Notes under the pieces: model-generated | What the model saw: the letters and a program-made list of their open reading frames with translations, nothing else | The model's database searches: none | Told to the model about the DNA's origin: nothing | Source: Lachnospiraceae bacterium | GTDB lineage: Bacteria; Bacillota; Clostridia; TANB77; CAG-508 | Length of the DNA: 64,000 nt | Reading direction: 5' to 3' | Assembly: GCA_963621995.1 (NCBI GenBank) | Contig: CAVFFZ010000004.1 | Coordinates: 16,876 to 80,875 of the forward strand | Part shown: piece after piece, positions 5,146-51,938 of the stretch | Layout of the letters: the number at the start of each line of letters is the position of its first letter | Numbering within the stretch: the first letter of the stretch is position 1 | Translations under genes and position numbers: made by a program

Positions 5146-5443
5146 TTAGAGTGACATTGCGAGCATTCCTAATAGGAATCCGGCTATGTTTCCTATTGCT
5201 GTCATTCTTCCGTGATATAAACTATTTGATTCTGGTATTAGTTCGCCTGATACTATGTATAGCATTGCTCCTGCCGCAAAACTTAAACACATTGCTATTA
5301 CTTCTTGTGATATTCCACCAAGTATTGCTCCAAAAAATGCTCCTATTCCTGTTGTTACTCCTGATAATATTACGTAGAAAATTACTTTTCCTTTTTTCAT
5401 TCCTCCGTTTTTCATGGGCACTGCCATACTTATTCCTTCTGGT
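5146..5443 (-). pseudogene. ZIP-family zinc transporter, 3' fragment (split by the island)
   Basis: ...PEG-ISMAVPMKNGG...GELIPES... continues exactly where the 5' fragment at 15817-16271 breaks (HDVPEG|ISMAVP). Confidence 0.85.
5435..5443. repeat. 9-bp shared core CCTTCTGGT (left junction)
   Basis: Identical 9-mer at 15817-15825, sitting at the two break points of the ZIP gene. Confidence 0.8.
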
Positions 5444-5502
5444 TGACATCAAAGTAGGCAGTTTCAATTTTTATTTTTGACTAATTTAATATTAAATTAG
5501 CC

Positions 5503-7059
5503 TTATATTTTTTCTTTTAGGTTATTTAATTGTTTAAAATTAAAATACAAATCTACTTGTTTATCTTGATGAATTTCAATTCTATTGATAATTACTTTCA
5601 TAATTTCTGATGTTGGCTCTTTTAATTCTAAAAATTCCTTAATCAACTTTTTTATGTTTTCATTATCATCTTGTTTTGAAGTATTCTGCATCTCTTTCAT
5701 TTGTACATATTCTCTTTCTTTTTGTTCTGCCTCATCTATTAATTTTTTATATAGCCTCTCATACATTGTTTCAGTTATTTTCCCATTTAATTTATCAACA
5801 TACATTTGATCTATATTATCATTTATAAGTTTTACTTCATTTTCTAACTTTTTTAGTATTTTCTCATAATTATATTTAGTCCTACTCTTTCTAATATTTA
5901 GTTCTATTTTTTCACTATCAATATCTTCAAATAATTTTTTTATATAATCTAACACCATTTCTTCTAAATTCTCATAACTAAATCCATGTGAGGTACAAAG
6001 ATTTATCTTTGAGTTTCTACGGTAATTATTACATACCATATAATAATGACCATTCTTTTTTCCTCTCACACCTATTTTATGATGACATTCATAACAAAAA
6101 AGTAATCCATCTAATAAAAATGTATTTTTCTTTTCATTTCTGTTGTAACTTTGGACTATCACCATTTTTTGTACCCTATCAAAAATTTTTTTATCTATTA
6201 TTGGTGGGTGTGTATTTTCTACAACATTCCATTGTTCCTTTGGATTTGGTCGAAGTTTTCTATTTTTATAGCTTATTCTGCTCCTTTTATTTTGTTCTGT
6301 TGTTCCTATATACACTTTATTTCTTAATATATTTTTTATCGTTTTATTTTCCCAAAATGAGTCTTTATTATATCTTGATTGATTAGCCGTAGGAATATTA
6401 TTTGTGTTTAAATAATCTCTTATGACGCCAACTTGATTTCCTGCCAATGCCATATTAAATATAGTCTTTACTATTTCAGCTTCTGTCTCACAAATTATTA
6501 GTTTGTTTTTATCTTTTGAGTCTTTCATATATCCTATTGCTGTTTTTCCCCCTACCCACTTTCCTTGTTTTTGCATAGTATGTAGAGCTGTCCTAATTTT
6601 TTTTGACAAGTCTTTAGAATACATATCATTTAATATTGATTTAAAAGGTGCAATATCATTGTTACCATTTGACGTTTCAAAAGTATCTATTCCATCTGTT
6701 ACAGAAACATATCTAACATTATTTTCAGGAAACCATTTTTCTATATATTCTCCTGTTTCTATGTAATCACGTCCTAAACGAGATAAGTCCTTTGTTACAA
6801 CCATATTAACTTTTCCTGAATTAATATCTCTAATCATTCGCTGAAAGCCTGGTCTATTAAAATTTGTTCCAGTGTAGCCTTGGTCAATATAAATGTCTAT
6901 TAGTTCATACTGCCATCCTAATTTTTGGACATATTCTGTTAATAATGTTCTTTGATTTTTTATGCTTTCGCTTTCATCATATCCTCTATCTACATCTTCT
7001 TTCGATAACCTTATATAAACTGCTACCTTGTACATTGTTTCTTCTATTTGTTCAAGCAC
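5503..7059 (-). CDS. large serine recombinase
   Basis: 518 aa. N-terminal resolvase domain (VAVYIRLSKED...SRLGRD), followed by a recombinase domain, Cys-rich zinc ribbon and coiled-coil tail. Confidence 0.9.
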   Translation of the reverse strand: MLEQIEETMYKVAVYIRLSKEDVDRGYDESESIKNQRTLLTEYVQKLGWQYELIDIYIDQGYTGTNFNRPGFQRMIRDINSGKVNMVVTKDLSRLGRDYIETGEYIEKWFPENNVRYVSVTDGIDTFETSNGNNDIAPFKSILNDMYSKDLSKKIRTALHTMQKQGKWVGGKTAIGYMKDSKDKNKLIICETEAEIVKTIFNMALAGNQVGVIRDYLNTNNIPTANQSRYNKDSFWENKTIKNILRNKVYIGTTEQNKRSRISYKNRKLRPNPKEQWNVVENTHPPIIDKKIFDRVQKMVIVQSYNRNEKKNTFLLDGLLFCYECHHKIGVRGKKNGHYYMVCNNYRRNSKINLCTSHGFSYENLEEMVLDYIKKLFEDIDSEKIELNIRKSRTKYNYEKILKKLENEVKLINDNIDQMYVDKLNGKITETMYERLYKKLIDEAEQKEREYVQMKEMQNTSKQDDNENIKKLIKEFLELKEPTSEIMKVIINRIEIHQDKQVDLYFNFKQLNNLKEKI

Positions 7060-7130
7060 TATTCCTCCTTCCTATACTTGATAAAAAACAATTGAATTCA
7101 GCTTAAATTATAACTGATTTTTTAGAAAAT

Positions 7131-7247
7131 TCACATGTTAAAATGATAATTTTTCTCTAATATATCAGTTAATAGACGTTCTATTAAGCTTTCTAATTCT
7201 TCACCCTTTTCATCAAAATACATATTAATTTTAAATGATTCGTTCAT
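7131..7247 (-). CDS. 38-aa small ORF upstream of the recombinase (hypothetical)
   Basis: GCAGGAGGCTAT-ATG; MNESFKINMYFDEKGEELESLIERLLTDILEKNYHFNM. No recognisable family. Confidence 0.3.
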   Translation of the reverse strand: MNESFKINMYFDEKGEELESLIERLLTDILEKNYHFNM

Positions 7248-7373
7248 ATAGCCTCCTGCTGTTTTTTTATTATTCATTTAAATTTATATGCCTAGAAATG
7301 TTTATTATTCTGGTTTTAAACATATAAACCTTGTAGAGGTAACTATTAATTCCTCTATTATATATAACATTAA

Positions 7374-8612
7374 CTAACTCAGGATTATTGCGAAAACTGT
7401 CGTCAGTTTTTATCCGACCGAGAAATTGAAGGAACCTGTCCTATTTGTGGTGGTCATGCCAAGGGCGATCAATGTGATGACTGCTTGGCGACTTTTGATG
7501 CAAATGAACTTACTAACAAAACCTGTAAATATTGTGGTTCTCCTGTATCAAAGCACAGCAATGTCCATCTTTATTGGAAATTATCCAAATATCAGCACCA
7601 AATCGCTGATTATGTGAGTTCTCATGAACATTTATGGAGATTTAGCGCAATAAATGAATCTCGTAAATATCTTGCTAACTCTGGTTTGATGGACAGAGCA
7701 ATTACCCGTCAGCTCGATTGGGGTATCGATGTACCGGTTAAAGGATTTGATGACAAAAAAATCTATGTATGGATTGAACCTGTTTTGGGATATATCTCTG
7801 CTGGAAAAAAATATTGTGAAGAACATGGTCTGAATTGGGAAGACTTTTATAAAGATTCCTCTTCTTTGGATACATATTATGTTCATGGCAAGGATAATAT
7901 TCCTTTCCATACAATCATTTTCCCGGCGTTGTTAATTGCTTTAAACGAGAATTACCAGCTACCTAACCACATTGTATCTTCTCAGTTTCTCAACATTGAT
8001 GATGAGAAAATTTCCAAGAGCAAAGGCAATGGTATTACTGTCAAAGATTTGTTAAACACATATTCTTCTGATAGTATTCGCTATTGTTTGACTTACCAGT
8101 CCCCTGAATTGAAGGATACCAACTTTATACCTGAAATTCTCGAACAACTGCATAACAAAATTCTTGTTGGCGAGTATGGTAACTTTGTAAATCGCAACTT
8201 GGCTTTTCTTGTAAAAAAGTTCAAGGGTATTATTCCTGTCGGTACTGTTAACCCTGATGTAATTTCTACTATTCAGGAAACATATTTCAAAGTGGGCGCT
8301 CTCATTGAAAATGCTGAATTAAAAAATGCTATTCAGGAAATCCAGCAACTTGTTAAATATGCTAACAAGTATTATGATGAAAAACAACCTTGGATTCAAG
8401 TTAAACAGGATATTTTCGCATTTAACGATACCACCGCTACTTGTATCGCCTTGATTGTTAACATTGCAAATCTCTATGAACCTTTTATTCCTGATTCTTC
8501 TAACATAATTTACAATTTCTTTGGAATTTCTAAACCTAATTGGGAATATATTTCAGTTGAACCCGGAGCAACATTAAACAATGTTTCAATTCTCTTCACC
8601 AGAATTGACTGA
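7374..8612 (+). pseudogene. 5'-truncated methionyl-tRNA synthetase relic
   Basis: The open frame starts right after a TAA at 7371. It encodes DYCENCRQF...CPICG...CKYCG...KISKSKGN..., colinear with residues about 145 to the end of the intact MetRS at 13663-15288. The HIGH-motif N-terminus is missing. Confidence 0.8.
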
Positions 8613-8634
8613 CTTTTCAGCTCCTAAAGAAAAT

Positions 8635-8668
8635 AGAGGAGGAAAGCTATAATTAGCTTTTCTCCTCT
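8635..8668. terminator. bidirectional hairpin between the MetRS relic and the GNAT gene
   Basis: AGAGGAGGAAAGCT-loop-AGCTTTTCTCCTCT lies between two convergent genes. Confidence 0.5.
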
Positions 8669-8771
8669 TTCTATATTCCTATAATTTTAATTTCTAATTT
8701 TTTAACATTTCAGCCAATATACCATTGCCTTCAATTATTTTTCTACAAAATATCTCTTTATATACATTCTC

Positions 8772-9350
8772 TTACTTAAAATACTCATCCTTTAAAATAG
8801 AATAATATTTTATATCTATAAATTTGTTTTTTAAAAATTCTTTCTTCCTTAGAGTTCCCTCATATATAAGTCCATTTTTTTGCATTACCCTTTCAGAAGC
8901 TACATTCATTGAATCAAGCCTTGTTTCAATTCTCGTTAAATTCATTTCAGTAAATCCAAACTTGACTATTTCTTTTAAAGCTTCTGTCATTATTCCTTTA
9001 TTCCAATACTTTTTGTTAAGTACATAACCAATTTCAGCAGAAAAATTTTTTCTATCATATTGCACAAAATCAATGCTTCCAATCAGCTTAGAATTTTCCT
9101 TCCATTCAATTCCCCATGGTGCAATTTCATTTTTAGAATACTTTAGTAATACATTCTCAATATAATCTACAGCCATATCTATACTTTTATACGTATTCCA
9201 TGACAAGAATTGTGTAACCTCATTATCACTTGCATATTCATATAAATCATCAATATCACTTTTAGTAAATTTTCTAAGAATAAATCTTTTAGTTTCTATT
9301 TTGGGCAAATTAAAATTTTTTTCTTGTTTTAACATATCCACATAAACCAT
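8772..9350 (-). CDS. GNAT N-acetyltransferase (RimJ/RimL-like)
   Basis: 192 aa. TKRFILRKFTKSD...WNKGIMTEALKEIVKFGF is the typical RimJ/L-type acetyltransferase pattern. Confidence 0.75.
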   Translation of the reverse strand: MVYVDMLKQEKNFNLPKIETKRFILRKFTKSDIDDLYEYASDNEVTQFLSWNTYKSIDMAVDYIENVLLKYSKNEIAPWGIEWKENSKLIGSIDFVQYDRKNFSAEIGYVLNKKYWNKGIMTEALKEIVKFGFTEMNLTRIETRLDSMNVASERVMQKNGLIYEGTLRKKEFLKNKFIDIKYYSILKDEYFK

Positions 9351-9366
9351 CTTTTCACATATATTT

Positions 9367-10392
9367 CTAATTAAATAAATAATCTTTAATATGATTTTCT
9401 ACATTTGTATGTTCAATTAATTTTTGTAAGGTTGGCTGTTCTCCAATCATATCTACACCATTGAATATAGTATCTGTGTAAAATTCTCCTATAGAATTCG
9501 CAAAAATAACCCCCTTTGCACGAAAATCAACTTGATTCCTATAAACTCTTATTAACATTTCATTTTCTAATTCTTTATTTAATTCTTTTTCAAGTTTTTC
9601 TAATTTTTCATCAGAAACCTTTATTTCATCAAAAAAGTCCTTACATCTTTCTGAATAGTTCACAGGATAAAGTTGCCATTTTTCTATTTTATATTTACGT
9701 AAATATCTTCCAATTTCAATTATTGAGTCATAGTTTATTTTTGTAACCACCGTATGTACACTAACCCTTACATTGTTTTGCTTAAGTAATTCAATGTTTC
9801 TTTTTATTTTATTAATCTGATTTTCATCATAAGGTCTAACTTTATTTGAAATATCATTATCCATACTATCTATTGTTATTCTAACTGTAGTATTACTATT
9901 TTTTATCTTATCAATATATTTTTCTAAATTAGAAGTTGTACCATTTGTATCTATAACAATAGCACATTTACCATCTAATATGTCAATTATAGAACCAATT
10001 TCAGGACATAGTGTTGGCTCTCCTCCAGTTAATCCCACTGTTAGTGGTGATAATGTCAATATATGCTTTGCGGTTTCTTTTAGGAGTTCTCCATTTAATT
10101 TTGCAGGATTCATCTTATTATTAGCACAACAATAAATACAATCTAAATTGCATACATCTGAAACTAACCAATTTATTCTAAATGGATATTTAACTTTTAC
10201 ATTGGGTGAAATTGCATTTTTATTTTCTTCTAAAAATTTTTCAAATTTATTTTTTTCTAATTTTTCATTTTTTGAAAAATATTCTTTTAATTCAACTCCT
10301 TCATAAAATTTATAAATATTCTTTACTATATCATAAACTGTTATACCATTTAATTCTTCTCTTATAAATAATTCTTTATCAATATTATACAT
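9367..10392 (-). CDS. radical SAM enzyme
   Basis: CNLDCIYC (CX3CX2C) and GGEPTL motifs. There is no C-terminal SPASM cysteine cluster. Confidence 0.8.
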   Translation of the reverse strand: MYNIDKELFIREELNGITVYDIVKNIYKFYEGVELKEYFSKNEKLEKNKFEKFLEENKNAISPNVKVKYPFRINWLVSDVCNLDCIYCCANNKMNPAKLNGELLKETAKHILTLSPLTVGLTGGEPTLCPEIGSIIDILDGKCAIVIDTNGTTSNLEKYIDKIKNSNTTVRITIDSMDNDISNKVRPYDENQINKIKRNIELLKQNNVRVSVHTVVTKINYDSIIEIGRYLRKYKIEKWQLYPVNYSERCKDFFDEIKVSDEKLEKLEKELNKELENEMLIRVYRNQVDFRAKGVIFANSIGEFYTDTIFNGVDMIGEQPTLQKLIEHTNVENHIKDYLFN

Positions 10393-10406
10393 ATATATTC
10401 CCCTTT

Positions 10407-12083
10407 CTATTTTGTTTTATTTTCCATATACAAATTAATATACTTAACCAAATTACTAAACTCGCTTCTTTTTCCTGCTGATACTCTTATACATTCTCCT
10501 AAAAAATTAGGATATGATTTTTTTATATTTCTAATTATAATTCCATTTGTTTGAAGATACTCCGTTAAGTCATTAACATCAATCAAGTCATCAAATCTTA
10601 TTAAAATAAATCCTGTGTTTACATTTATTATTTCTTTTATATATTTTGAATTTAAATTTGAAATAAGATATGTAAAATTTTTCTGGATTTTATTTATTAA
10701 TTTTATATCATTAAATCTATTAAAATAATTTATCACAAATAATTCAGAAAATATATTAATAGAAAACAATATTCTAATTTTATTAATTTCTTTTGCATTA
10801 ACTTCGTTTGTAATAATAAAGCCACACCTTAAACCTGGCACTCCAAAAAATTTAGACACTGATGTAATAACTGATAAATTAATATTATTTATTGTTTCAT
10901 TAATTAATGTTCTTTCAGAATAGTCAGCATTAAATACAAGTTCTGTTTCATCTATTACAAAATGACAATTTTTATTTTTTCTAATAATTTTCAACAAATT
11001 TTCTCTATTTAAAGTATCTAATGTTGGATTATTAGGATTACATATAAATATCATATCTACATTTTTACTTAATTCATTAATTTTATCATATTCATAATAT
11101 CTATTATCTTTCAATGACATTTTTATAATGTCACAATTATTTCTTTTACATGCGCTTTCATATCCCCAAAAAGTTGGAGTAAAAACTCCAACTTTTTTTA
11201 TATTAAGTATTCTTAATAGATAATCAAATGCTTCTGTAGAACCATTAGTTACAATTGTAGTTTCTATTGGCACATTCAATTTATCTGATATTACTCTATT
11301 TACTTTATTTGATGTTGCAGAGGGATAAGTTTTTAATAAATTCACATTCGAGGCTAATTTAAATCTCATTTTTTTGTCAGGTAAATACGGATTTAAATTA
11401 TTACATAAAATTATTGTTTTTCTCTTTTTTTTATATCTATTTAATGCCTTCTTTATTTGTTTTATTAAATGCTTTTCCTTTTCAATACTATTGTTTTTAT
11501 ATCCCAAGAACATCTCACCTTCATTTCCAGTATTAGCATCGCAATAAAGGTTTCTTAGTATATTTTCTGGTGATAGATCATTTAAACTTGCATATTCAAT
11601 AATTGTATTAAGTATAAGATTCCAAGCTTTCTCTTCATATTTTTTAACAACTTTTTTGCAATTAATTGATATGTGTTTTGTTGTAAGTATATTTAATATT
11701 AGTCTTTTTCTCATTTCTTCTGATGTAAGAAATTCTTCTGTTTTCACAATTGGATTAATTGAAACTATACCTCTATTTACAAAGGGATTATCAATAATTG
11801 CGTCTTTTATATCTTGATACGATAATATTAATTTGTTTTCGTAAGGGACTTCTTTGTCAATTTTTAAATTATTTTCATGATGAAACTCTATAACTTTTTT
11901 AGTTATTTTTTCTTTATCTTCAGCACAAATATTATCACAAATGATGCATACATCCAAATCGCTTGAATTAGTATCTAAAATATTTGAACCATATATTATT
12001 ATTCCAAAATCCAGTTTTGGAAATTCATTATACATTTCAGTCTTAAATTTTAGGCATAAACTATTCACTTTATTTTCCTCCAT
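10407..12083 (-). CDS. nucleotidyltransferase / class I-II aminotransferase fusion protein
   Basis: N-terminus YGS...SSDLDVCII (Pol-beta NTase motif). C-terminal half has FICNPNNPT and SVSKFFGVPGLRCG (HisC/CobD-like PLP lysine region). Confidence 0.7.
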   Translation of the reverse strand: MEENKVNSLCLKFKTEMYNEFPKLDFGIIIYGSNILDTNSSDLDVCIICDNICAEDKEKITKKVIEFHHENNLKIDKEVPYENKLILSYQDIKDAIIDNPFVNRGIVSINPIVKTEEFLTSEEMRKRLILNILTTKHISINCKKVVKKYEEKAWNLILNTIIEYASLNDLSPENILRNLYCDANTGNEGEMFLGYKNNSIEKEKHLIKQIKKALNRYKKKRKTIILCNNLNPYLPDKKMRFKLASNVNLLKTYPSATSNKVNRVISDKLNVPIETTIVTNGSTEAFDYLLRILNIKKVGVFTPTFWGYESACKRNNCDIIKMSLKDNRYYEYDKINELSKNVDMIFICNPNNPTLDTLNRENLLKIIRKNKNCHFVIDETELVFNADYSERTLINETINNINLSVITSVSKFFGVPGLRCGFIITNEVNAKEINKIRILFSINIFSELFVINYFNRFNDIKLINKIQKNFTYLISNLNSKYIKEIINVNTGFILIRFDDLIDVNDLTEYLQTNGIIIRNIKKSYPNFLGECIRVSAGKRSEFSNLVKYINLYMENKTK

Positions 12084-13574
12084 CTAGTTCATTTTATTTA
12101 CAATTTCTTCTGCTTTTTTTCTGACATATGAAAGCATTTTTGTTATATCATTTTTCTGTATATTATCATTTCCTGACATATATCTTAATGGATAAACAAT
12201 TGTATCTTTTTTCAAAACGCCTAAATTATCTGGTATTGAAAATTGATGCAAATAATATATTTCTTCATTATCCATAACTTCTTTTATCTGCTTGTTTATA
12301 TTATTAAGTTCATCAATATTATATTTAATATCGTTTTTATTACCAACATACATAAATATAACTGAATTTATATTAATATCATTTAGCAGAACAAAATCAT
12401 TTGATTTGTTTATCTCATCTCCTAAAAAAATCGCCATTTCATGTCTTCGTTCTATTATATTTCCTATCTCTTTTATGCCTAAATTTTTCAATACAAACCA
12501 TGCTTTTAGAGATATCCAACTTTTCGAGCCTATAAATGGTGTGACTTGTCCAAATGCATATGGTTCTTGCATTATTAAATCAGATGTTGATGATATCATT
12601 TTTATCTTTTCTGGATCATTTATTAATAATGCACTTAATGTATATGGTATCATTAATACTTTATGAGGATCTGTTGAAATACTATCAAATAACTCTAATC
12701 CTTTTATCTTATTTTTTAATTTTTCACTAAAAGCAAGTGAAAATCCATGACATGCATCAGCATGTAACCAGATATTTTTATCTTCGCTTTTAACGACTTC
12801 GTAAACCCCTTGTAAATCTTCAATTGACATAGTTCTGCTGTCTCCTACATAGGCAACAACACACATTATTTTCCCCTTATTATCCTTTATTGTTTCTTTT
12901 AATTTTTCCAAGTCATATTTGAAATTATTTGTTTGAACTTCTATAATATTATTTCCACATCCTAACCACATACAACTACTTCTAATACTATAATGTCCTA
13001 TTCCCTTCGGAATAATTACCTTATAATCACTTGGATTTGTTACTCCTTTGCTCATTGTATTTTTTCTGTGGTTTTCTCTTGCTAAAAGCATAGCTGTTGC
13101 ATTACTTCCAGTACCTCCATATGTAATAATCCCTCCAACATCATATATATTTTTAATTGATTTAATATTATAACCTACTAATTCTCTTAGCCATTTAATT
13201 ACAGCTATCTCCATAAATGTTGCAATAGGTGCACAAAAACTTGAATTTATTAAGTTTTGTTGAAGTAAATCAGTGAAAATTGCACCGCTTAATCCTGCTA
13301 TTGAATTTCCTGCATCAGGAAATCCCATAAAATTAATGGTAGAAAAGTTTGAGCAATATGGTAAAATTTCTTCTTTGAATTTTTCTAGTAACTTATCTAA
13401 TTCAACACCTTTTATTGGTGTTTCCAAAAGCTCTTGCATTTGCTCCTCTGCAAATTTATTTTGAGCAAAGTTTTCTTGACACTTAAAATCTATTCCTATA
13501 TCTATTACTTTTTTTAGTTCTTCCTTTACTTCATCTTTATTTTTATTATTAAGTATATTATTCACCTCAAACAC
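12084..13574 (-). CDS. group II PLP-dependent amino-acid decarboxylase
   Basis: 496 aa. GGTGSNATA, HADACHG and STDPHK (PLP lysine) motifs. GTG start; abuts the next gene with no gap. Confidence 0.8.
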   Translation of the reverse strand: MFEVNNILNNKNKDEVKEELKKVIDIGIDFKCQENFAQNKFAEEQMQELLETPIKGVELDKLLEKFKEEILPYCSNFSTINFMGFPDAGNSIAGLSGAIFTDLLQQNLINSSFCAPIATFMEIAVIKWLRELVGYNIKSIKNIYDVGGIITYGGTGSNATAMLLARENHRKNTMSKGVTNPSDYKVIIPKGIGHYSIRSSCMWLGCGNNIIEVQTNNFKYDLEKLKETIKDNKGKIMCVVAYVGDSRTMSIEDLQGVYEVVKSEDKNIWLHADACHGFSLAFSEKLKNKIKGLELFDSISTDPHKVLMIPYTLSALLINDPEKIKMISSTSDLIMQEPYAFGQVTPFIGSKSWISLKAWFVLKNLGIKEIGNIIERRHEMAIFLGDEINKSNDFVLLNDININSVIFMYVGNKNDIKYNIDELNNINKQIKEVMDNEEIYYLHQFSIPDNLGVLKKDTIVYPLRYMSGNDNIQKNDITKMLSYVRKKAEEIVNKMN

Positions 13575-13662
13575 AATCTTTCTTTTTCATATATATAAAT
13601 AAAAGTAAAATTAGCTTTTATTTATACTATTTTACTTTTATTATTACCTATTTTTATTAATA

Positions 13663-15288
13663 TCAAATTCTCTCGAAAAGTATTTCTATATTGTCAAGGG
13701 ATATTTTTTCTTTTATTTGTATTTGATTCCATGATGGTTTTTCAATTTTTAAATATTCCCTTAATTTATTAGATGTTTGTGGCATTATTGGTTCAAGCAA
13801 ATTAGATAAATTAGCAATTACATTAGCACAAGTATAAATAGTATTATTAAATTCTTCCATATTTTCTTTCTTCTGTATCCATGGTTTTCTTTCATCATAA
13901 TACTTATTTCCTATCTCAATTAATTCAACTATTTTATTACATGCTTTTTTAAATTCCAGATTTTCTATATATTCAGAAACTATTTTATAAGTTTCCTCAA
14001 TTTTTTCAATCATCTGTTTATCCATAACACCTAAAGGAATTTCATCTAAGCCTTTAAATTTTAAAGTCCTATTTACAAAATTTCCAAATTTGTTGACCAA
14101 ATCAGAATTATGGACATTAACATAATTTTCTATTGTGAAATCCACATCTTTATTTTCTGGTCCATAAGCTATCATATAATATCTTAAAGAATCTACATCA
14201 TATTCTTCTACCATTTGTTGTATTGTTATACTATTTCCTTTACTTTTTGATATTTTTTCAGAATTTATATTCAAGTATTGTGTTGCAACCATTACATCTG
14301 GTAAATGAAATTTTTCTTCCATAGCCAACAATAATGATGGTAAGATTATAGTATGAAATGTTATATTATCTTTTCCATGACACATATACATTTTAATATT
14401 ATTATCTTCTTTCCAAAACTCTTCCCAATTTAAGCCTTTCTCTTCACAAATTTTTTGTGTTGCAGTAACATATCCTAATACAGCATCAATCCATACATAC
14501 ATTTTTTTATCTTCAAAACCTTCAATTGGAATATCAACACCCCAAGATAAGTCTCTTGTTACTGCTCTATCTTTCAACCCTTCTTTTAAATATTTTTCAG
14601 TTTCATTTATTGATGCAATTCGCCAATTTTTTCGGTTTTTTTTGGCATATTGTTCTATCTGATTTTGAAATTTTGATAATGCAATATATAAATGGATATT
14701 TTCTTTTTGTATAGTTTTATTTCCACATTCTCTACAAGTTGCTCCTATTAAATCATCTTCATTAGGGACATATCCACAATCACATTGATCTCCTTTTGTA
14801 ATTAACCCACAATTAGGACAAACTAATTCCAATTCTCTATCAGATTCAAATTTATCACAATGTTCACAATATGGTTGCATGTTCTTTTTAGGATAAATAT
14901 ACTTATTTTTGTACATTTTTAAAAACATTTCTTCTACATGTTTCTTATGATAATCATCGCAAGTTTTTGTATATATATCATAAGAAAAATTCATTTTTTC
15001 AAAAATATCTTTAAATTCATTATGATACTTTTCTGCAATATTTTTTGGCTCTATTTTCTCACGTTTAGCTCTTTCCGTAATAGGTGTTCCATGACAATCT
15101 GTTCCGGAAACATATAGTACATTATCATTTAATAACTCATGATATCTTTTTAGGAAATCTCCCGAAATTAATGCTGCTAGATGTCCTAGATGTAAAGAGC
15201 TATTTGCATAAGGCCAGGCCCCACCAATCAATACATTTCTTTTATTTTTCGTTTCACTTTCTTTAAAATAACATACCTCATTATCCAA
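13663..15288 (-). CDS. metG: methionyl-tRNA synthetase, short form without a C-terminal tRNA-binding domain
   Basis: HIGH motif (SLHLGH), KMSKS motif (KISKS), and CxxC knuckles (CEHCDK/CPNCG, CDCG/CRECG). The probable start is the TTG at 15288, 7 nt after GGGGGAGGG; the track ORF extends to 15306. Confidence 0.9.
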   Translation of the reverse strand: MDNEVCYFKESETKNKRNVLIGGAWPYANSSLHLGHLAALISGDFLKRYHELLNDNVLYVSGTDCHGTPITERAKREKIEPKNIAEKYHNEFKDIFEKMNFSYDIYTKTCDDYHKKHVEEMFLKMYKNKYIYPKKNMQPYCEHCDKFESDRELELVCPNCGLITKGDQCDCGYVPNEDDLIGATCRECGNKTIQKENIHLYIALSKFQNQIEQYAKKNRKNWRIASINETEKYLKEGLKDRAVTRDLSWGVDIPIEGFEDKKMYVWIDAVLGYVTATQKICEEKGLNWEEFWKEDNNIKMYMCHGKDNITFHTIILPSLLLAMEEKFHLPDVMVATQYLNINSEKISKSKGNSITIQQMVEEYDVDSLRYYMIAYGPENKDVDFTIENYVNVHNSDLVNKFGNFVNRTLKFKGLDEIPLGVMDKQMIEKIEETYKIVSEYIENLEFKKACNKIVELIEIGNKYYDERKPWIQKKENMEEFNNTIYTCANVIANLSNLLEPIMPQTSNKLREYLKIEKPSWNQIQIKEKISLDNIEILFERI

Positions 15289-15318
15289 TAAAAATCCCTC
15301 CCCCATTAAAATATGTTT

Positions 15319-15347
15319 ATAATATCATATTAATAGTATTTTGTCAA
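15319..15347 (-). promoter_or_regulatory. sigma-A promoter, TTGACA-17 nt-TATTAT, for the island MetRS
   Basis: Minus sense: TTGACA (15347-15342), a 17-nt spacer, TATTAT (15324-15319), about 20 nt upstream of the SD. Confidence 0.55.
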
Positions 15348-15688
15348 TTTTTTCCTGCCACTTTTTCAATTTAAATATTTTAGTTAGTTACTATTTACAC
15401 CTTTAAAATAATTTGCTAAAAACCATAGTATATATAATTTTTTTATTTAATAAATTATTATATTTTTTCTCTTAAAAATACTTTAACTTCATGTCTCTAT
15501 AGTTCTATTGTTTTTTAAACTCTCCTTTATCTTATCATCCTTGTAAATATCTCAATAAGTTTATCATAAATTGCCCATTTAAGGCAAGAATGCCCTATCT
15601 CTCAATAGTACCTCCCTACCTCAACATGCAAAAGTTGGAGATAGAAACTCTATAAATGCTTAAATATCTGTATTTACTCATTTTTAAA

Positions 15689-15739
15689 AGTGGGGAATTT
15701 TTTTCAAGATAAAATCTTTCAAAATTCCCTACTTTTTTG
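15689..15739. terminator. bidirectional intrinsic terminator inside the right end of the island
   Basis: AGTGGGGAATTTT-loop-AAAATTCCCTACT with T/A runs on both sides. It would stop read-through from the truncated ZIP gene. Confidence 0.6.
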
Positions 15740-15812
15740 TACTGTAAATTCATAAAAAATTTGAATTCAAATCATTTTATCTAGCATATTTAACTTGCTG
15801 TCTACTTTGTAA

Positions 15813-16271
15813 TCAACCTTCTGGTACGTCATGCAGGCATATTGCAATTGCCAGTGAATAACCTAATGTTATTGATGCTCCAAAGCCAGATCCTATTGCT
15901 AAGCCTTCCGGAAAATTATGAAGTGCTAAACCTATACTTACTATTATTCCCGTTTTTAATAAATTGCTTGTTGTATTTGTATTCATTTTATTTGTATTAA
16001 ACTTTTTTTGTACTAATACGTCACATATTATCATTATTATTATTCCTGCAATAATTCCCATAAGTACACTGAAAATGTTTGATATTTCCATTGCTTCTGG
16101 TATTAAATCAAAGCATATTATTGCTAACATTAGTCCTGAGGCAAATGCTAAAATAAAACTTAAAAATTTATTTGACTTTCTTTTGAAACATACTCCTATT
16201 ATTCCTCCTATTGTTGTTCCAAATGTCCCAAAAAATAAGCCTATTAATGTTGTTTTTAATATTTCATTCAA
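15813..16271 (-). pseudogene. ZIP-family zinc transporter, 5' fragment (split by the island)
   Basis: TM-rich sequence with HNFPEGLAIG and ...LHDVPEG, then a TGA supplied by the first bases of the island (GGT-TGA). Confidence 0.85.
15817..15825. repeat. 9-bp shared core CCTTCTGGT (right junction)
   Basis: Identical to 5435-5443. Confidence 0.8.
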
Positions 16272-16334
16272 ATTAAAACACTCCTTAAAATTAAACTTTT
16301 TATTAGTTTATTTTTAAGAAGTGTGATTTATTCG

Positions 16335-17396
16335 TTATTCTTCTTCACCTTTTAATTTTTCTGCTCTGTCTGCTGCTATTAAGTTATCTATCATTTCGTC
16401 TAAATTTCCATTTAAAAAATCTTCAAATTGATATACATTCATTCCTATTCTGTGGTCTGTTATACGTCCTTGTGGATAGTTATATGTACGTATTTTTTCA
16501 CTTCTGTCTCCACTACCTACTTGACTTTTTCTTTCATTTGCTATTTGACTATCTCTTTTTTGTTTTTCTATTTCATATAGTCTAGAACGAAGTAATCTCA
16601 TTGCATATTCTCTATTTTGTACTTGTGAACGTTCTGTTTGGCATTCTGCAACAACTCCTGTTGGAACGTGAATTAATCTTACTGCTGATGATGTTTTGTT
16701 TACGTGTTGTCCTCCAGCACCAGATGCTCTATAAACTTCCATTTTTATATCTGCTGGGTTTATATCTATTTCTACATCTGCTACTTCAGGAAGTACTGCT
16801 ACTGTTGCAGTTGAAGTATGTATTCTACCACTACTTTCTGTATCTGGCACACGTTGTACACGATGTACTCCACTTTCAAATTTCAGTCTACTATATGCTC
16901 CTTTTCCTGTAATCATAAAAGATATTTCTTTATATCCTCCAAGACCTGTTTCATTTTCATTTACTACTTCTAGTTTCCAGTGTTTTTTCTCTGCATACAT
17001 AGAATACATTCTAAATAGTGTTCCTGCAAATAGTGCTGCTTCTTCTCCACCAGCACCTCCACGTATTTCGCATATAACGTTTTTATCATCATCTGGATCT
17101 TTTGGAATTAAAAGTATTTTTAATTCTTCTTCTATTTTTGGCATAGCTTCTTTATTTGCAAGCATTTCTTCTTCAGCTAAATCTTTCATTTCTGGGTCAT
17201 TCATCATTTCTTTTGCTTCTTCATATGCTTGTTTTGCTTTTTTATATTCTCTGTATTTTTGTACTATTGGTTCTAATTCTGCATGTTCTTTCATATATTC
17301 GCGCCATTCGTTTGTTCTTGAAATTACTTCTGGATCGCTTATTTTTGTTGTTAATTCTTCATAACGTTTTTCTACCGTCTCTAATTTATCAAACAT
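16335..17396 (-). CDS. prfA: peptide chain release factor 1
   Basis: [11 protein letters not shown] (GGQ) and an RF1-type body, 353 aa. Confidence 0.9.
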
Positions 17397-20755: not shown

Positions 20756-22874
20756 TTATTCTTCCATTGGCCCAAATAATTCATCAAATTTTGCTTCTAA
20801 TTCCTTTTGTATATCCTCTGTAAATAGTTGAGGTTTTTTCTCTTTTTTTTCTTCATCACCTTGTGGTAATGTAGAACTATCAAAATCTTTAAAATCAAAC
20901 AAGTCTGAAAGTGTTTCTTGCTTTTTAGGCATTCTTTCTATTTCTATACTTTTTTGTTTTGTTGGAGTCTCATCTATTTCTATGTTATGTAAAATATCTG
21001 ATTTCCCTTCTTTTACACTTTCTTGTATATTTGAAATTTCATTTGGTATATTTTTTTCTTTTTCGTCAATATCTTCAAATAAGTCATCTAATGATTCTAC
21101 TTTTAAATTTTCTACTGCTTTTTTATCTGTTTCTGGGACATATGGATTATATGGATTGTATTTTCTCCATTCTCCCCTTACTCCAGCATCAAAATGATTA
21201 TGGTCTAATTTGTTTTCCTCTAATTCTTTGCACATTTTTTGATGTGCAAAATAATAGTATTTCTTTGCTTTTACTGGTTTTATTCCTTTTTCAAAAATTA
21301 TACATAAGTCATTGTCCATTCTACGAAGTTCATCCGGTGTCATTAATGGTCTTCCTAACATTTGTTCAGAATCGCTGAACCCTTGTTTATGTGCGTGTTT
21401 GTCACGATTTGTTGATTTGCTTTGTCTAAATATTGTTTTTTCTCCCAACGCTTTAGAGAAATATTCTACTGTTTTGTATGAGTTACTTCCTAAAAACACG
21501 TGTGTATCGCAGTTACCAATTATTGTTTCATAGCTTTTTTCGTATATTGCTTCTAATTGATCTAAGTTTTGTAAAATAACACTAAATTGAATTCCTCTAC
21601 TTCTTGATGTTGATATTTTTTTGTCGAAGTCTGGTATTCTACCAATATTGGCAAACTCATCTAGTATAAAGTATACTGGCATTTGAAGTTTGCCCCCATT
21701 TAAGTCTGCATAATTGTATAATTGTTGTATCATTTGAGAGAAGAATATTGTAAGTAAAAAGTCATATGCTGTGTGTGTATCTGATGATATAACATATACA
21801 GCTGTTTTCTTTTTTCCTATATCTTCAAAATTTATTGTATCTGTTGATGTTACTTCTGCTATATCTTTTGAATCAAATTTTCCTAGTTTTGATTGTAATG
21901 AACTTAAAATTGATCCATAAGTTTTTTCTGGTGCTATTTCTATTGATTTGTAATACATTCTTGCTGGATGATCATAAGGTAATTGATTTATTAATTCTGT
22001 AAGTAAGTTACTTCCACCATTTGTGTTTGCTGCTCTTACTAATTCAGAACAACTTGCTAAGTTTTGCTCTTCTTCTGGTCTTGTAGCAATTAGGTAATAA
22101 ATTAATGCTTTTAATAGTATTTCAGCCATGTCCTCCCAATATGGATCTGATTTACTTTCTGAAGCTTGACCTTTTACTACAGTGTTTGCTATTACATCTA
22201 CATCTAACTCACTAGCTACGTGCATTAATGGGTTGTACCCATCACTATTTACTGGATTTACTAAGTTTAATACTTTTATTTCATAGCCATGTTCTTTTAA
22301 GTATCCTGCTGTATCATCATATAATTCACCCTTTGGATCTGTAAATACATATGAACCAAGCATTTGATATGCATTTGGTTTTGAATATGATGCAGATTTA
22401 CCAGATCCAGATCCGTCCAACTATAAGTGTATTTATGTTTCCACGCTTATCTACTGGTAAATAGTTATCTTCCGCCAATATAATTCCTTTATTTTTGCTT
22501 AATATTCTATATTGCTCACCATGTTCACTCCAATCACTAGAACCATGTTCCATATCGTGATATTCACCCTTTGGTTTTGATTTTACAAAACCTATAATAG
22601 AACATATTATAAACAAAATTGTATAATTCATTAAGCAACTTCCAAATGTACTTATGTATTCTGCTGAAAACATTCTTGTTATACTTGAAAAACTTCTAAT
22701 TGCAGGTATTAGCCTATTTACAAAAGTGTCAAGTACAAATACACCTGTTCTTGAAGCATCTTCAATTGCTTCCGCTATAGGCGAAACAAGTACTATAGCT
22801 AAAAATACCCATAGTACTCCTATAATAATTAAAATTTTTTTACTTTGTTTTAATGTTCTTTTAAACTTTTCCAT
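20756..22874 (-). pseudogene. VirD4/TraG-type type IV coupling protein, frameshifted in the Walker A box
   Basis: Two track ORFs (22398..22874 and 20756..22420). The N-part ends LIVG-RIWIW* and the C-part starts DGSGSGKS. Removing one base at 22415 restores LIVGGSGSGKS. Confidence 0.8.
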
Positions 22875-31518: not shown

Positions 31519-31595
31519 GGTTCAGTAGCTCAGCTGGATAGAGCAACGGATTTCTAATCCGTGGGTCGGGGGTTCGAATCCCTCCTGGATCACCA
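31519..31595 (+). tRNA. tRNA-Arg (anticodon UCU)
   Basis: Hand-folded cloverleaf, 77 nt: acceptor GGTTCAG/CTGGATC, anticodon arm ACGGA-TTTCTAA-TCCGT, T arm GGGGG-TTCGAAT-CCCTC, encoded CCA. Confidence 0.85.
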
Positions 31596-36668: not shown

Positions 36669-36778
<110 letters not shown>

Positions 36779-51570: not shown

Positions 51571-51938
51571 AAGTTTTTTCTCCTTTCGTACTTTATTTAC
51601 GATGATATTTTCTTTGCCCCTCATCATCTGGGAATTATTAGATGGTAATTTACATTACTCCACTGGAATTTAACCACTCCGACTCTGTCCGAGTTGCACC
51701 CTATACGATGAGTTAAGGCTATGCAAGTGTCTCATTATGTTGTATCTAACAACTGAAATATTCAATTTTCAATGTCCTATCTAAAGAATTTAGGGAAATT
51801 CTATTGACTTTTCAAAGTAATTATTGTAATCTATATATATCAACAAGTAATTACTTGGCTTTATCAAAGTATAACGTAAGCTTTATAATTTGTCAAGCGA
51901 TTACAATAAAATTTTTAAATATTTTTTAGGAGTGGAAA

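Follow-up and report, generated by a model that had tools for sequence, protein, structure and literature searches.

Why would a mobile island carry a complete methionyl-tRNA synthetase (MetRS), placed at the head of a tight row of enzyme genes? The question arises from a 64,000-nt stretch of contig CAVFFZ010000004.1 of a Lachnospiraceae bacterium (hereafter ‘the window’, meaning the whole stretch), for which an initial annotation had proposed a biosynthetic cluster guarded by its own MetRS. Following up this proposal by comparison with related loci (labeled L001 and so forth below), we read the cassette, with moderate confidence, as a pathway whose product, a nucleotide conjugate built from an amino acid, would target the synthetase, and in which the MetRS and probably a RimL/MccE-like GNAT acetyltransferase serve self-protection.

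A five-gene cassette led by a synthetase

The cassette comprises five minus-strand genes arranged head to tail, with gaps of 88, 0, 14 and 16 nt between them. Positions of the open reading frames (ORFs) confirmed this layout as first described, and the motifs quoted at the time (SLHLGH, KISKS, CxxC, STDPHK, NPNNPT, SVSKFFG and CNLDCIYC) were all present. Likewise, the assignments of a decarboxylase, a radical SAM enzyme and a RimJ/L-type GNAT held up in the matches to PF00282, PF04055 and PF13302. PLP denotes pyridoxal phosphate.

13663–15288, minus strand: complete short-form MetRS (MetRS-A), 541 aa, type-2/archaeal-like, without a C-terminal tRNA-binding domain
12084–13574, minus strand: group II PLP-dependent amino-acid decarboxylase, 493–496 aa (PF00282, 150 bits; STDPHK motif)
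10407–12083, minus strand: fusion protein (gene 3), 558 aa, with a probable N-terminal minimal Pol-beta-type nucleotidyltransferase (NTase; residues 1 to ~215) and a C-terminal HisC/CobD-like PLP enzyme
9367–10392, minus strand: radical SAM enzyme, 341 aa, viperin/MoaA-like (CNLDCIYC; PF04055, 68 bits)
8772–9350, minus strand: GNAT acetyltransferase of the RimJ/RimL/MccE-CTD type, 192 aa (PF13302 (Acetyltransf_3), 114 bits)

The completeness of MetRS-A and its lack of the C-terminal tRNA-binding domain, both noted initially, were borne out by profile searches. TIGR00398 scored 470 bits (cut-off, 336), PF09334 matched with 416 bits, and Anticodon_3/Anticodon_1 domains are present. The HIGH and KMSKS signatures read SLHLGH and KISKS, the CxxC knuckles CEHC, CPNC, CREC and CDC, and the N..R and W residues of the anticodon site align with E. 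coli. From its sequence, the enzyme looks fully functional. It is of type 2 rather than type 1, as the E. coli-type model PRK00133 scored 506 bits versus 320 for the Gram-positive type-1 model PRK12267, and the nearest solved relatives are those of P. abyssi (1rqg) and the human cytoplasm (5gl7), with S. aureus-type enzymes far lower. A tryptophan at the position of E. coli Leu13 (AWPYAN) was considered as a resistance signature and discarded as a broad clade trait: it occurs in all cluster MetRS of the gut clade and also in 47 of the 120 nearest representatives at 50% identity, long housekeeping-type forms included, while some environmental cluster MetRS read ALPY instead of AWPY. The methionine-pocket positions 256, 257, 260, 297 and 301 follow the archaeal/eukaryotic pattern and are uninformative.

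Among solved structures, the decarboxylase is closest to diaminobutyrate (DABA) decarboxylases, GADL1 and CSAD. As for gene 3, initially described as a Pol-beta NTase fused to a HisC/CobD-like aminotransferase, the C-terminal part, two-thirds of the protein, was corroborated. It matches PF00155 (102 bits), carries NPNNPT, SVSKFFG and the PLP lysine (Lys411), and in the AlphaFold model of the fusion (pLDDT, the per-residue confidence score, 86) reaches template-modeling (TM) scores of 0.88 to HisC (3ftb) and 0.81 to CobD (1lc7), at scores below the equivalog cut-offs for HisC (TIGR01141, 165 versus 277) and CobD (TIGR01140, 148 versus 291). By equivalog cut-offs, no cassette enzyme qualifies as HisC, as CobD or as any known decarboxylase. 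The N-terminal domain, in turn, is indicated by its motif, by sub-threshold Pfam matches and by non-significant fold matches. Judged by the motif of the Pol-beta superfamily (hG[GS]-x9-13-Dh[DE]h plus a third carboxylate; PF01909/PF18765), the domain shows YGS...DLD...D76xE78, invariant in 18 sequences, as well as GExxLGYK and a helical second half. Foldseek returned no significant match to it (best E, 0.68); nearly all top matches were Pol-beta NTases, with antibiotic adenylyltransferases among them and MNT antitoxins nearest. Taken together, the domain is probably a remote member of the Pol-beta NTases. In L108 and L118–L125, NTase and aminotransferase are encoded by separate genes.

The best matches of the radical SAM enzyme are prokaryotic viperins (NF038283, 71 bits versus a cut-off of 180, at model positions 3–209 of 281; PADLOC pVip, 80.6 bits; PDB entries 9dfn, 7n7i and 6b4c). 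Viperin-like yet below the viperin equivalog, it is a candidate nucleotide-modifying enzyme. Relatives of at least 90% identity are annotated in Clostridium sp. CAG:273 and in Clostridiales metagenome-assembled genomes (MAGs). The GNAT matched RimL (1s7k) and MccE (3r95) among PDB sequences with E ~1e-7, a likeness at the family level, and scored 59.7 against the RimL equivalog model (cut-off, 184), making it a candidate second detoxification enzyme. Of the five proteins, the radical SAM enzyme alone (through pVip) matched any PADLOC defence model, and a profile search found no ThiF/MccB domain in any of them.

Linkage and exchange of the synthetase across relatives

Relatives of the fusion protein are few, amounting to ~30 clusters at 31–96% identity. 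In every cluster examined, down to 31% identity, a group II decarboxylase adjoins this relative and a MetRS is also encoded. Gene 3 occurs in nine architectures, namely that of the window and the eight below. A search for co-occurrence of the gene set, as suggested initially, returned the entire five-gene cassette in three of them, so that, with the window island, it is found in four genomic contexts.

L001: same five genes on a tyrosine-integrase/Mob_Pre element
L009: same five genes on a serine-recombinase/relaxase element
L101: same five genes in plain chromosome
L004: RelA/SpoT-like enzyme and methyltransferase
L108: RelA/SpoT-like enzyme and small radical SAM enzyme
L005: adenylation domain/peptidyl carrier protein (A-domain/PCP), carbamoyltransferase, chloramphenicol acetyltransferase (CAT)-like and HAD/NT5C genes
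L010: glycosyltransferase–decarboxylase fusion, NT5C and a phosphoribosyltransferase-like protein
L011: B12-radical SAM enzyme, Nudix-like protein and HAD protein

To map this association more widely, metagenomes were scanned with the NTase domain alone, and the resulting loci were scored with hidden Markov models built from the cluster proteins. The scan yielded 72 loci, with gut, rumen, groundwater, soil and marine habitats all represented. In those with at least 3 kb on both sides (n = 20), a decarboxylase was present in 19, in each case adjacent to the NTase, a MetRS in 16 and an aminotransferase in 15. This MetRS frequency is far beyond chance for a single-copy gene. Close relatives of the cassette proteins recur on many human-gut and other metagenome contigs, those of the radical SAM cluster alone on hundreds. 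A scan of viral contigs found no relatives, and a scan of a genome collection with the full gene-3 alignment gave no orthologue among the matches listed, where ordinary HisC/CobD proteins were matched via CNPNNPT.

The decarboxylase and the NTase alone form the core (19/20), and aminotransferase, radical SAM enzyme and GNAT are variable. The MetRS-guarded four-enzyme pathway envisaged at the outset is supported in part. The link between MetRS and enzymes stands, as attested by linkage and by the exchange described below, the guarding by MetRS is a hypothesis, and the four-enzyme set was drawn too narrowly. What is usually added to the core is a HisC/CobD-like PLP enzyme and a complete aminoacyl-tRNA synthetase. 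Synteny is kept down to ~30% identity across habitats, accompanied by translational coupling and gene fusions.

The accessory genes encode viperin-like radical SAM, RelA/SpoT-like, NT5C, phosphoribosyltransferase-like and Nudix-like enzymes, and further a type I nucleotide pyrophosphatase, a carbamoyltransferase and a MiaB-like methylthiotransferase; the RelA/SpoT-like enzymes of sister clusters bear TGS domains. These nucleotide-related functions would be consistent with an amine–nucleotide conjugate. In L167, a gene for an ATP-binding cassette (ABC) ATPase lies directly 3’ of the MetRS and is followed by two unannotated ORFs, which together may constitute an exporter. In two environmental loci, the MiaB-like gene (UPF0004 and Radical_SAM) is inserted between decarboxylase and NTase (L163, 1619–2875; L176, 2551–3813), hinting that a methylthio group might be installed de novo. 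Small ORFs near the clusters were considered as precursor or leader peptides and rejected, as they are not conserved between loci.

MetRS is missing from four of the 20 well-flanked loci. Two of these four contain a different synthetase gene, for an arginyl-tRNA synthetase (ArgRS) and a phenylalanyl-tRNA synthetase (PheRS)-like protein, respectively. In the former (L135), a complete ArgRS gene sits between decarboxylase and NTase and abuts both:

L135, 5243–12867: Rel-like protein, decarboxylase, ArgRS, NTase, viperin-like radical SAM enzyme, Metallophos phosphoesterase, GNAT (Acetyltransf_3), in this order

Downstream follow an ABC-F-type ATPase and an AMP-binding enzyme, and the viperin-like enzyme of this locus is 48% identical to that of the window cassette. 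In the latter (L160), a single-chain PheRS-like gene stands beside the NTase, in the company of a 2-hydroxyacid dehydrogenase, an APH-type kinase, an FAD oxidoreductase and a very divergent decarboxylase. Pairwise comparison of MetRS-type clusters gave identities of 42–49% for NTases and 63–70% for decarboxylases; against the same clusters, the L135 proteins showed 48–53% for the decarboxylase, 38–44% for the NTase and 69% for the Rel-like protein. The decarboxylase diverges in step with the synthetase swap, and the NTase and Rel-like protein are no more diverged. Such co-variation would be expected if the decarboxylase acted on the amino acid of the neighboring synthetase or a close derivative. 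As in self-resistance clusters, the synthetase is co-inherited with the enzymes, and its specificity is matched to the pathway.

The NTase is the hub of these rearrangements. A separate gene in many loci, it is elsewhere fused to the aminotransferase, to the decarboxylase (L167, 8393–10693) or to MetRS. The NTase–MetRS fusions stem from groundwater and soil metagenomes: L149 (9914–12250) encodes one in a single ORF with a complete MetRS part, HIGH and KFSKS intact, and two more (L138, 8962–10341; L152, 1741–3333) are cut by contig ends.

The functional link between MetRS and the enzymes is strong because the MetRS is accessory and mobile (see below), the linkage extends across divergent clusters, the synthetase is swapped, and the accessory genes are nucleotide-related. 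We describe a cluster family that is widespread and new, and whose defining trait is a decarboxylase–NTase pair matched to an aminoacyl-tRNA synthetase.

The island, its second synthetase and neighboring features

The island covers 5444–15816 of the window (10.4 kb), is of the large-serine-recombinase type and interrupts the ZIP/ZupT gene (zupT). Window positions 6335–27396 are 100% identical to a contig of NCBI MAG GCA_963656305.1, referred to below as the identical public contig.

5503–7059, minus strand: large serine recombinase, the integrase of the island, 518 aa (Resolvase, Recombinase and Zn_ribbon_recom domains; CcrB/CcrC-like)
5435–5443: recombination core ACCAGAAGG at the recombinase-side junction, defined on the basis of the intact zupT site of L095
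5443–5461, minus strand: island-end inverted repeat CTGCCTACTTTGATGTCAA, adjoining the core at the recombinase-side junction
15817–15825: second copy of the core ACCAGAAGG
15798–15816: island-end inverted repeat TTGATTACAAAGTAGACAG, adjoining the second core
15813–16271, minus strand: N-terminal half of ZIP/ZupT (PF02535 and ZupT model matches)
5146–5427: C-terminal half of ZIP/ZupT (PF02535 and ZupT model matches)
7374–8612, plus strand: MetRS-B gene remnant, 5’-truncated (PF09334 matched from profile position 158 onward)
7131–7247, minus strand: 38-aa ORF MNESFKINMYFDEKGEELESLIERLLTDILEKNYHFNM immediately upstream of the recombinase; the gene call on the identical public contig includes it

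Large-serine-recombinase elements are recognized by Resolvase, Recombinase and zinc-ribbon domains at one end, a short common core and an empty site. All three were found here: each junction has the 9-bp core ACCAGAAGG, the inverted repeats lie immediately inside, and in three gut metagenome contigs with an identical RF1 protein (L095–L097) zupT is intact (247 aa) and the island missing. The island is a serine-recombinase integrative element, and its MetRS is accessory and mobile, given that strains with identical RF1 have an empty zupT site. MetRS-A is then in all likelihood not the sole MetRS of the species, as the empty sites would imply another metG.

Directly beside the island lies a second strain difference. 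Island-free strains have ~3.6 kb between prfA and zupT (L095, 11062–14627), encoding a 333-aa protein, an NrtR-like regulator, a Ham1-like NTPase and an FtsX fragment, that are missing from the window (16272–16335). Common to strains with and without the island is a gene for a TraG/VirD4-type coupling protein (20756–22420, minus strand; T4SS-DNA_transf and TrwB_AAD_bind), which may be a remnant of a conjugative element.

The initial inventory of five cassette genes was correct, but it overlooked the second MetRS gene, located between recombinase and cassette. Lacking the first ~130 residues, HIGH included, MetRS-B is a pseudogene remnant here, 69–74% identical to L009_B and the B fragment of L011 and ~48% identical to MetRS-A. 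In L009, L111, L112 and L134, a full-length MetRS-B gene lies convergent to and downstream of the cassette; the ancestral element therefore had two MetRS genes. Many elements carry both lineages, A and B. In a separate observation, a MetRS 66% identical to MetRS-A (L182, 7001–8602) leads a different cassette on a Tn4451-like element (L182–L184) with serine recombinase, TnpW, Mob_Pre and TnpV. That cassette encodes a 465-aa class-I-synthetase-like protein, a 332-aa PP-loop ATPase (SGGKDS) and a MoaA-like radical SAM enzyme, and MetRS-led cassettes on mobile elements seem to recur in gut Clostridia.

With respect to expression, the following signals were located around the cassette:

15319–15347, minus strand: promoter TTGACA-17-TATTAT (TTGACA at 15342–15347, 17-nt spacer, TATTAT at 15319–15324)
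15296–15304, minus strand: Shine–Dalgarno sequence GGGGGAGGG, upstream of the MetRS TTG start
13601–13639, minus strand: AT-rich hairpin followed by a U-rich tract, between the MetRS and enzyme genes
8635–8668: palindromic terminator between the convergent GNAT gene and MetRS-B fragment (15-pair stem with 6 G–C pairs, then a T tract)

The MetRS ORF spans 13663–15306 (minus strand), its coding part from the TTG start (15286–15288) being 13663–15288. The initially proposed promoter, Shine–Dalgarno sequence and TTG start agree with two further results: the identical public contig, in a separate gene call, likewise yielded a protein of 541 aa, and the promoter is the top match of its region (11/12 positions plus an upstream TG), in AT-rich DNA where promoter-like sites as a class are not enriched (78 observed versus 76 expected). 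The hairpin was recovered as well (folding free energy, −12.8 kcal/mol; z = −3.0) and is a possible partial terminator. By its sequence, the strong terminator at 8635–8668 marks the 3’ end of the operon. The reported lack of a T-box leader was upheld by an RNA search, in which no T-box, S-box or any other riboswitch, and no tRNA gene, was found with the cassette. We had also entertained pyrrolysine-like expansion of the genetic code, and dropped it as no dedicated tRNA was found. Elsewhere in the window, tRNA genes are located at 31519–31592 (plus strand) and 36705–36778 (minus strand), and the Rfam pemK cis-regulatory RNA matches at 51660–51738 (minus strand) with 51.3 bits (gathering score, 34.8).

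Readings of the cluster and its counterparts

How might these genes act together? In the pathway we propose, the decarboxylase and the HisC/CobD-like domain would turn methionine, or a compound close to it, into an amine or a group of the amino-alcohol type, which the NTase would couple to a nucleotide; the ribose of this nucleotide may beforehand be altered by the viperin-like radical SAM enzyme. The resulting conjugate, a methionyl-adenylate mimic that cannot be hydrolysed, would block MetRS. Promoter-proximal MetRS-A would keep tRNA-Met charged in the producer, as MetRS-B would originally have done, and the RimL/MccE-like GNAT may acetylate free product. The type of link (amine phosphoramidate or amino-alcohol phosphoester) and the nucleotide used are matters of speculation. 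We favor this antimetabolite pathway because it unites the element-borne distribution, the complete synthetase, the swap, the nucleotide-tailoring genes, the ABC ATPase of L167 and the RimL/MccE-type GNAT. That MetRS-A lacks a T-box or S-box, of the kind by which housekeeping genes are usually regulated, counts in its favor, too.

Several points weigh against it. Chemistry, target and immunity role are predictions from the genes, and a simple amine phosphoramidate would make a poor adenylate mimic. The Pfam matches of the NTase domain (NTP_transf_2, Polbeta or MTPAP) remain sub-threshold in 5/5 divergent members, at 13–19 bits versus 21. The sequence of MetRS-A, with its methionine pocket examined, bears no mark of inhibitor insensitivity, and the window cassette and most of its relatives contain no gene for an exporter or for (Trojan-horse) uptake. 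The second housekeeping metG of this genome is implied by empty sites only. Moreover, a relative 63% identical to MetRS-A stands alone between rplS and ftsY in GCA_017511265.1 (L105–L107; L105, 10001–11656) and is apparently the ordinary housekeeping MetRS of that Clostridia MAG; the origin of lineage A therefore lies in a short type-2 enzyme that is the ordinary MetRS of some Clostridia, and arguing from type 2 versus type 1 may be inapplicable to this host. Finally, the NTase–MetRS fusions, as well as the co-existence of MetRS lineages A and B on a single element, could mean that MetRS is a catalytic partner rather than, or besides, a shield.

This last thought leads to the alternative that the synthetase does part of the pathway's work, supplying Met-tRNA or enzyme-bound Met-AMP or serving as a scaffold for substrate recognition. 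The product would then be a methionine-containing nucleoside-type metabolite elaborated by decarboxylase, NTase and PLP enzyme, and its target need not be MetRS. VlmL of the valanimycin pathway is a precedent for a full-length synthetase with such a dedicated role. Intact catalytic motifs in the NTase–MetRS fusions (L138, L149 and L152) speak for such a role, and the fusion of the NTase to aminotransferase or decarboxylase as well suggests a physical complex. Of the two MetRS lineages per element, one could be biosynthetic and the other protective. The synthetase swap is accounted for equally well, the general scarcity of exporters fits, and the agrocin cluster has both an aminoacyl-tRNA synthetase-like enzyme and a resistant LeuRS (PMC8323819). 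On the other hand, housekeeping MetRS normally supplies Met-tRNA, so that there is little reason for ~80% of the clusters to have a dedicated complete copy. Within the core, no tRNA-dependent transferase (Fem/GNAT-fold or cyclodipeptide synthase) is conserved, the GNAT being missing from many clusters, and MccE sets a precedent for a protective domain fused to a biosynthetic one. On balance, we regard this as the main rival reading, though a rather unlikely one.

Improbable to a greater degree is a conflict, anti-phage defence or element-addiction system, acting through a chain-terminating or signaling nucleotide or on tRNA, with the synthetase as sensor, decoy or back-up. The viperin matches of the radical SAM enzyme point in this direction, as do the TGS-bearing RelA/SpoT-like enzymes of sister clusters, the (non-significant) fold proximity of the minimal NTase to MNT antitoxins and the location on mobile elements; the missing exporter would suit an intracellular product. 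Yet only the radical SAM enzyme matches a PADLOC model, it stays far below the NCBIfam viperin cut-off (71 versus 180), and the scan of viral contigs found no relative. Two PLP amino-acid enzymes together with an amino-acid-matched swap indicate small-molecule amino-acid chemistry instead, and the accessory A-domain/PCP, carbamoyltransferase, glycosyltransferase and methyltransferase genes look biosynthetic.

That the linkage is meaningless, with a type-2 MetRS resistance gene hitch-hiking or the enzymes forming a primary-metabolic module (methionine salvage, polyamine or cobamide-linker), is very improbable and largely excluded by the comparative data: acquired MetRS2 genes do exist in Gram-positives (PMC7916415, PMC8165550), HisC/CobD and group II decarboxylases are common in primary metabolism and a close MetRS relative is a housekeeping gene elsewhere, but the genes stay syntenic down to ~30% identity and are translationally coupled and in places fused, clusters that are otherwise homologous differ in their synthetase, carriage is patchy, accessory and tied to mobile elements, conspecifics having empty sites, and the scores of all the enzymes remain below the equivalog cut-offs for HisC, CobD and known decarboxylases.

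Returning to the antimetabolite pathway, a broader version of it may tentatively be put forward. The clusters could represent a modular, ‘programmable’ family in which the decarboxylase sets the amino-acid identity of an amine–nucleotide warhead, the minimal NTase builds this warhead, and the matching spare synthetase (MetRS, ArgRS or PheRS), sometimes fused to the NTase, protects the producer. The MetRS version of the gut, present on several kinds of mobile element, would then be an interbacterial weapon or an element-addiction module, and the selective force behind mobile type-2 MetRS. This generalization is doubtful, and we offer it as a possible framework.

We are not aware of any gene cluster for a natural MetRS inhibitor; if the proposed pathway is real, it would be the first. 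It would further provide a broad family that can be mined via the matched synthetase (Met, Arg or Phe), and an answer to why acquired type-2 MetRS genes circulate in Gram-positive bacteria. Diaryldiamine inhibitors of MetRS1 are in development against Clostridioides difficile, and type-2 MetRS on integrative and mobilisable elements is a potential reservoir of resistance. Even if the idea of immunity is wrong, the NTase–synthetase fusions represent undescribed enzymology. Literature searches returned no description of this gene set, the nearest being a prediction of agrocin-like clusters with MetRS (PMC8323819), to which we come back below.

Compared with known systems, MetRS-A resembles metS2, by which Streptococcus pneumoniae and Bacillus anthracis resist MetRS1 inhibitors and which is likewise an acquired, extra MetRS of the archaeal/eukaryote-like type 2 in Gram-positive bacteria. 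Type-2 MetRS is poorly inhibited by the diaryldiamines (PMC7916415, PMC8165550). Unlike metS2, the present gene is tied to a conserved enzyme set, and the housekeeping MetRS of its host may itself be a short type-2 enzyme.

Microcin C (MccB/MccD/MccE) shares with the proposed product its nature as an aminoacyl-adenylate mimic and with the cassette the use of a PLP decarboxylase, there in tailoring. Its RimL-type GNAT (MccE-CTD), fused to a biosynthetic domain, detoxifies by acetylation, and the window GNAT matches MccE; both MccE-CTD and RimL acetylate aminoacyl-nucleotides. In contrast, the ThiF-like MccB and the precursor peptide are missing here, the decarboxylase belongs to a different family, and microcin C producers are protected by enzymes and a pump, not by a spare synthetase.

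The closest precedents for such a synthetase are the resistant copies in the agrocin 84 (AgnB2 LeuRS), albomycin (SerRS) and mupirocin (IleRS) clusters. There, too, a small enzyme cluster on a mobile element includes, and is inherited together with, a complete additional synthetase. The products of agrocin 84 and albomycin are nucleotide-type adenylate mimics, and the present clusters also have nucleotide-tailoring genes. They differ in that no pathway enzyme is held in common, that the target here would be MetRS and that most clusters here are without an exporter. The synthetase itself is the same in agrocin-84-like clusters of Actinobacteria, in which a MetRS, usually not the sole one, lies within a putative nucleotide-antibiotic cluster and was proposed to confer immunity against a product predicted to target MetRS (Travin, Severinov and Dubiley 2021; PMC8323819). 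Whereas those clusters, likewise a prediction, are defined by homologues of AgnC1/AgnC0 in Actinobacteria, the family described here is built on a group II decarboxylase and a minimal Pol-beta NTase, to which a HisC/CobD-like enzyme may or may not be added, extends over Clostridia and many environmental bacteria, and includes variants with ArgRS and PheRS.

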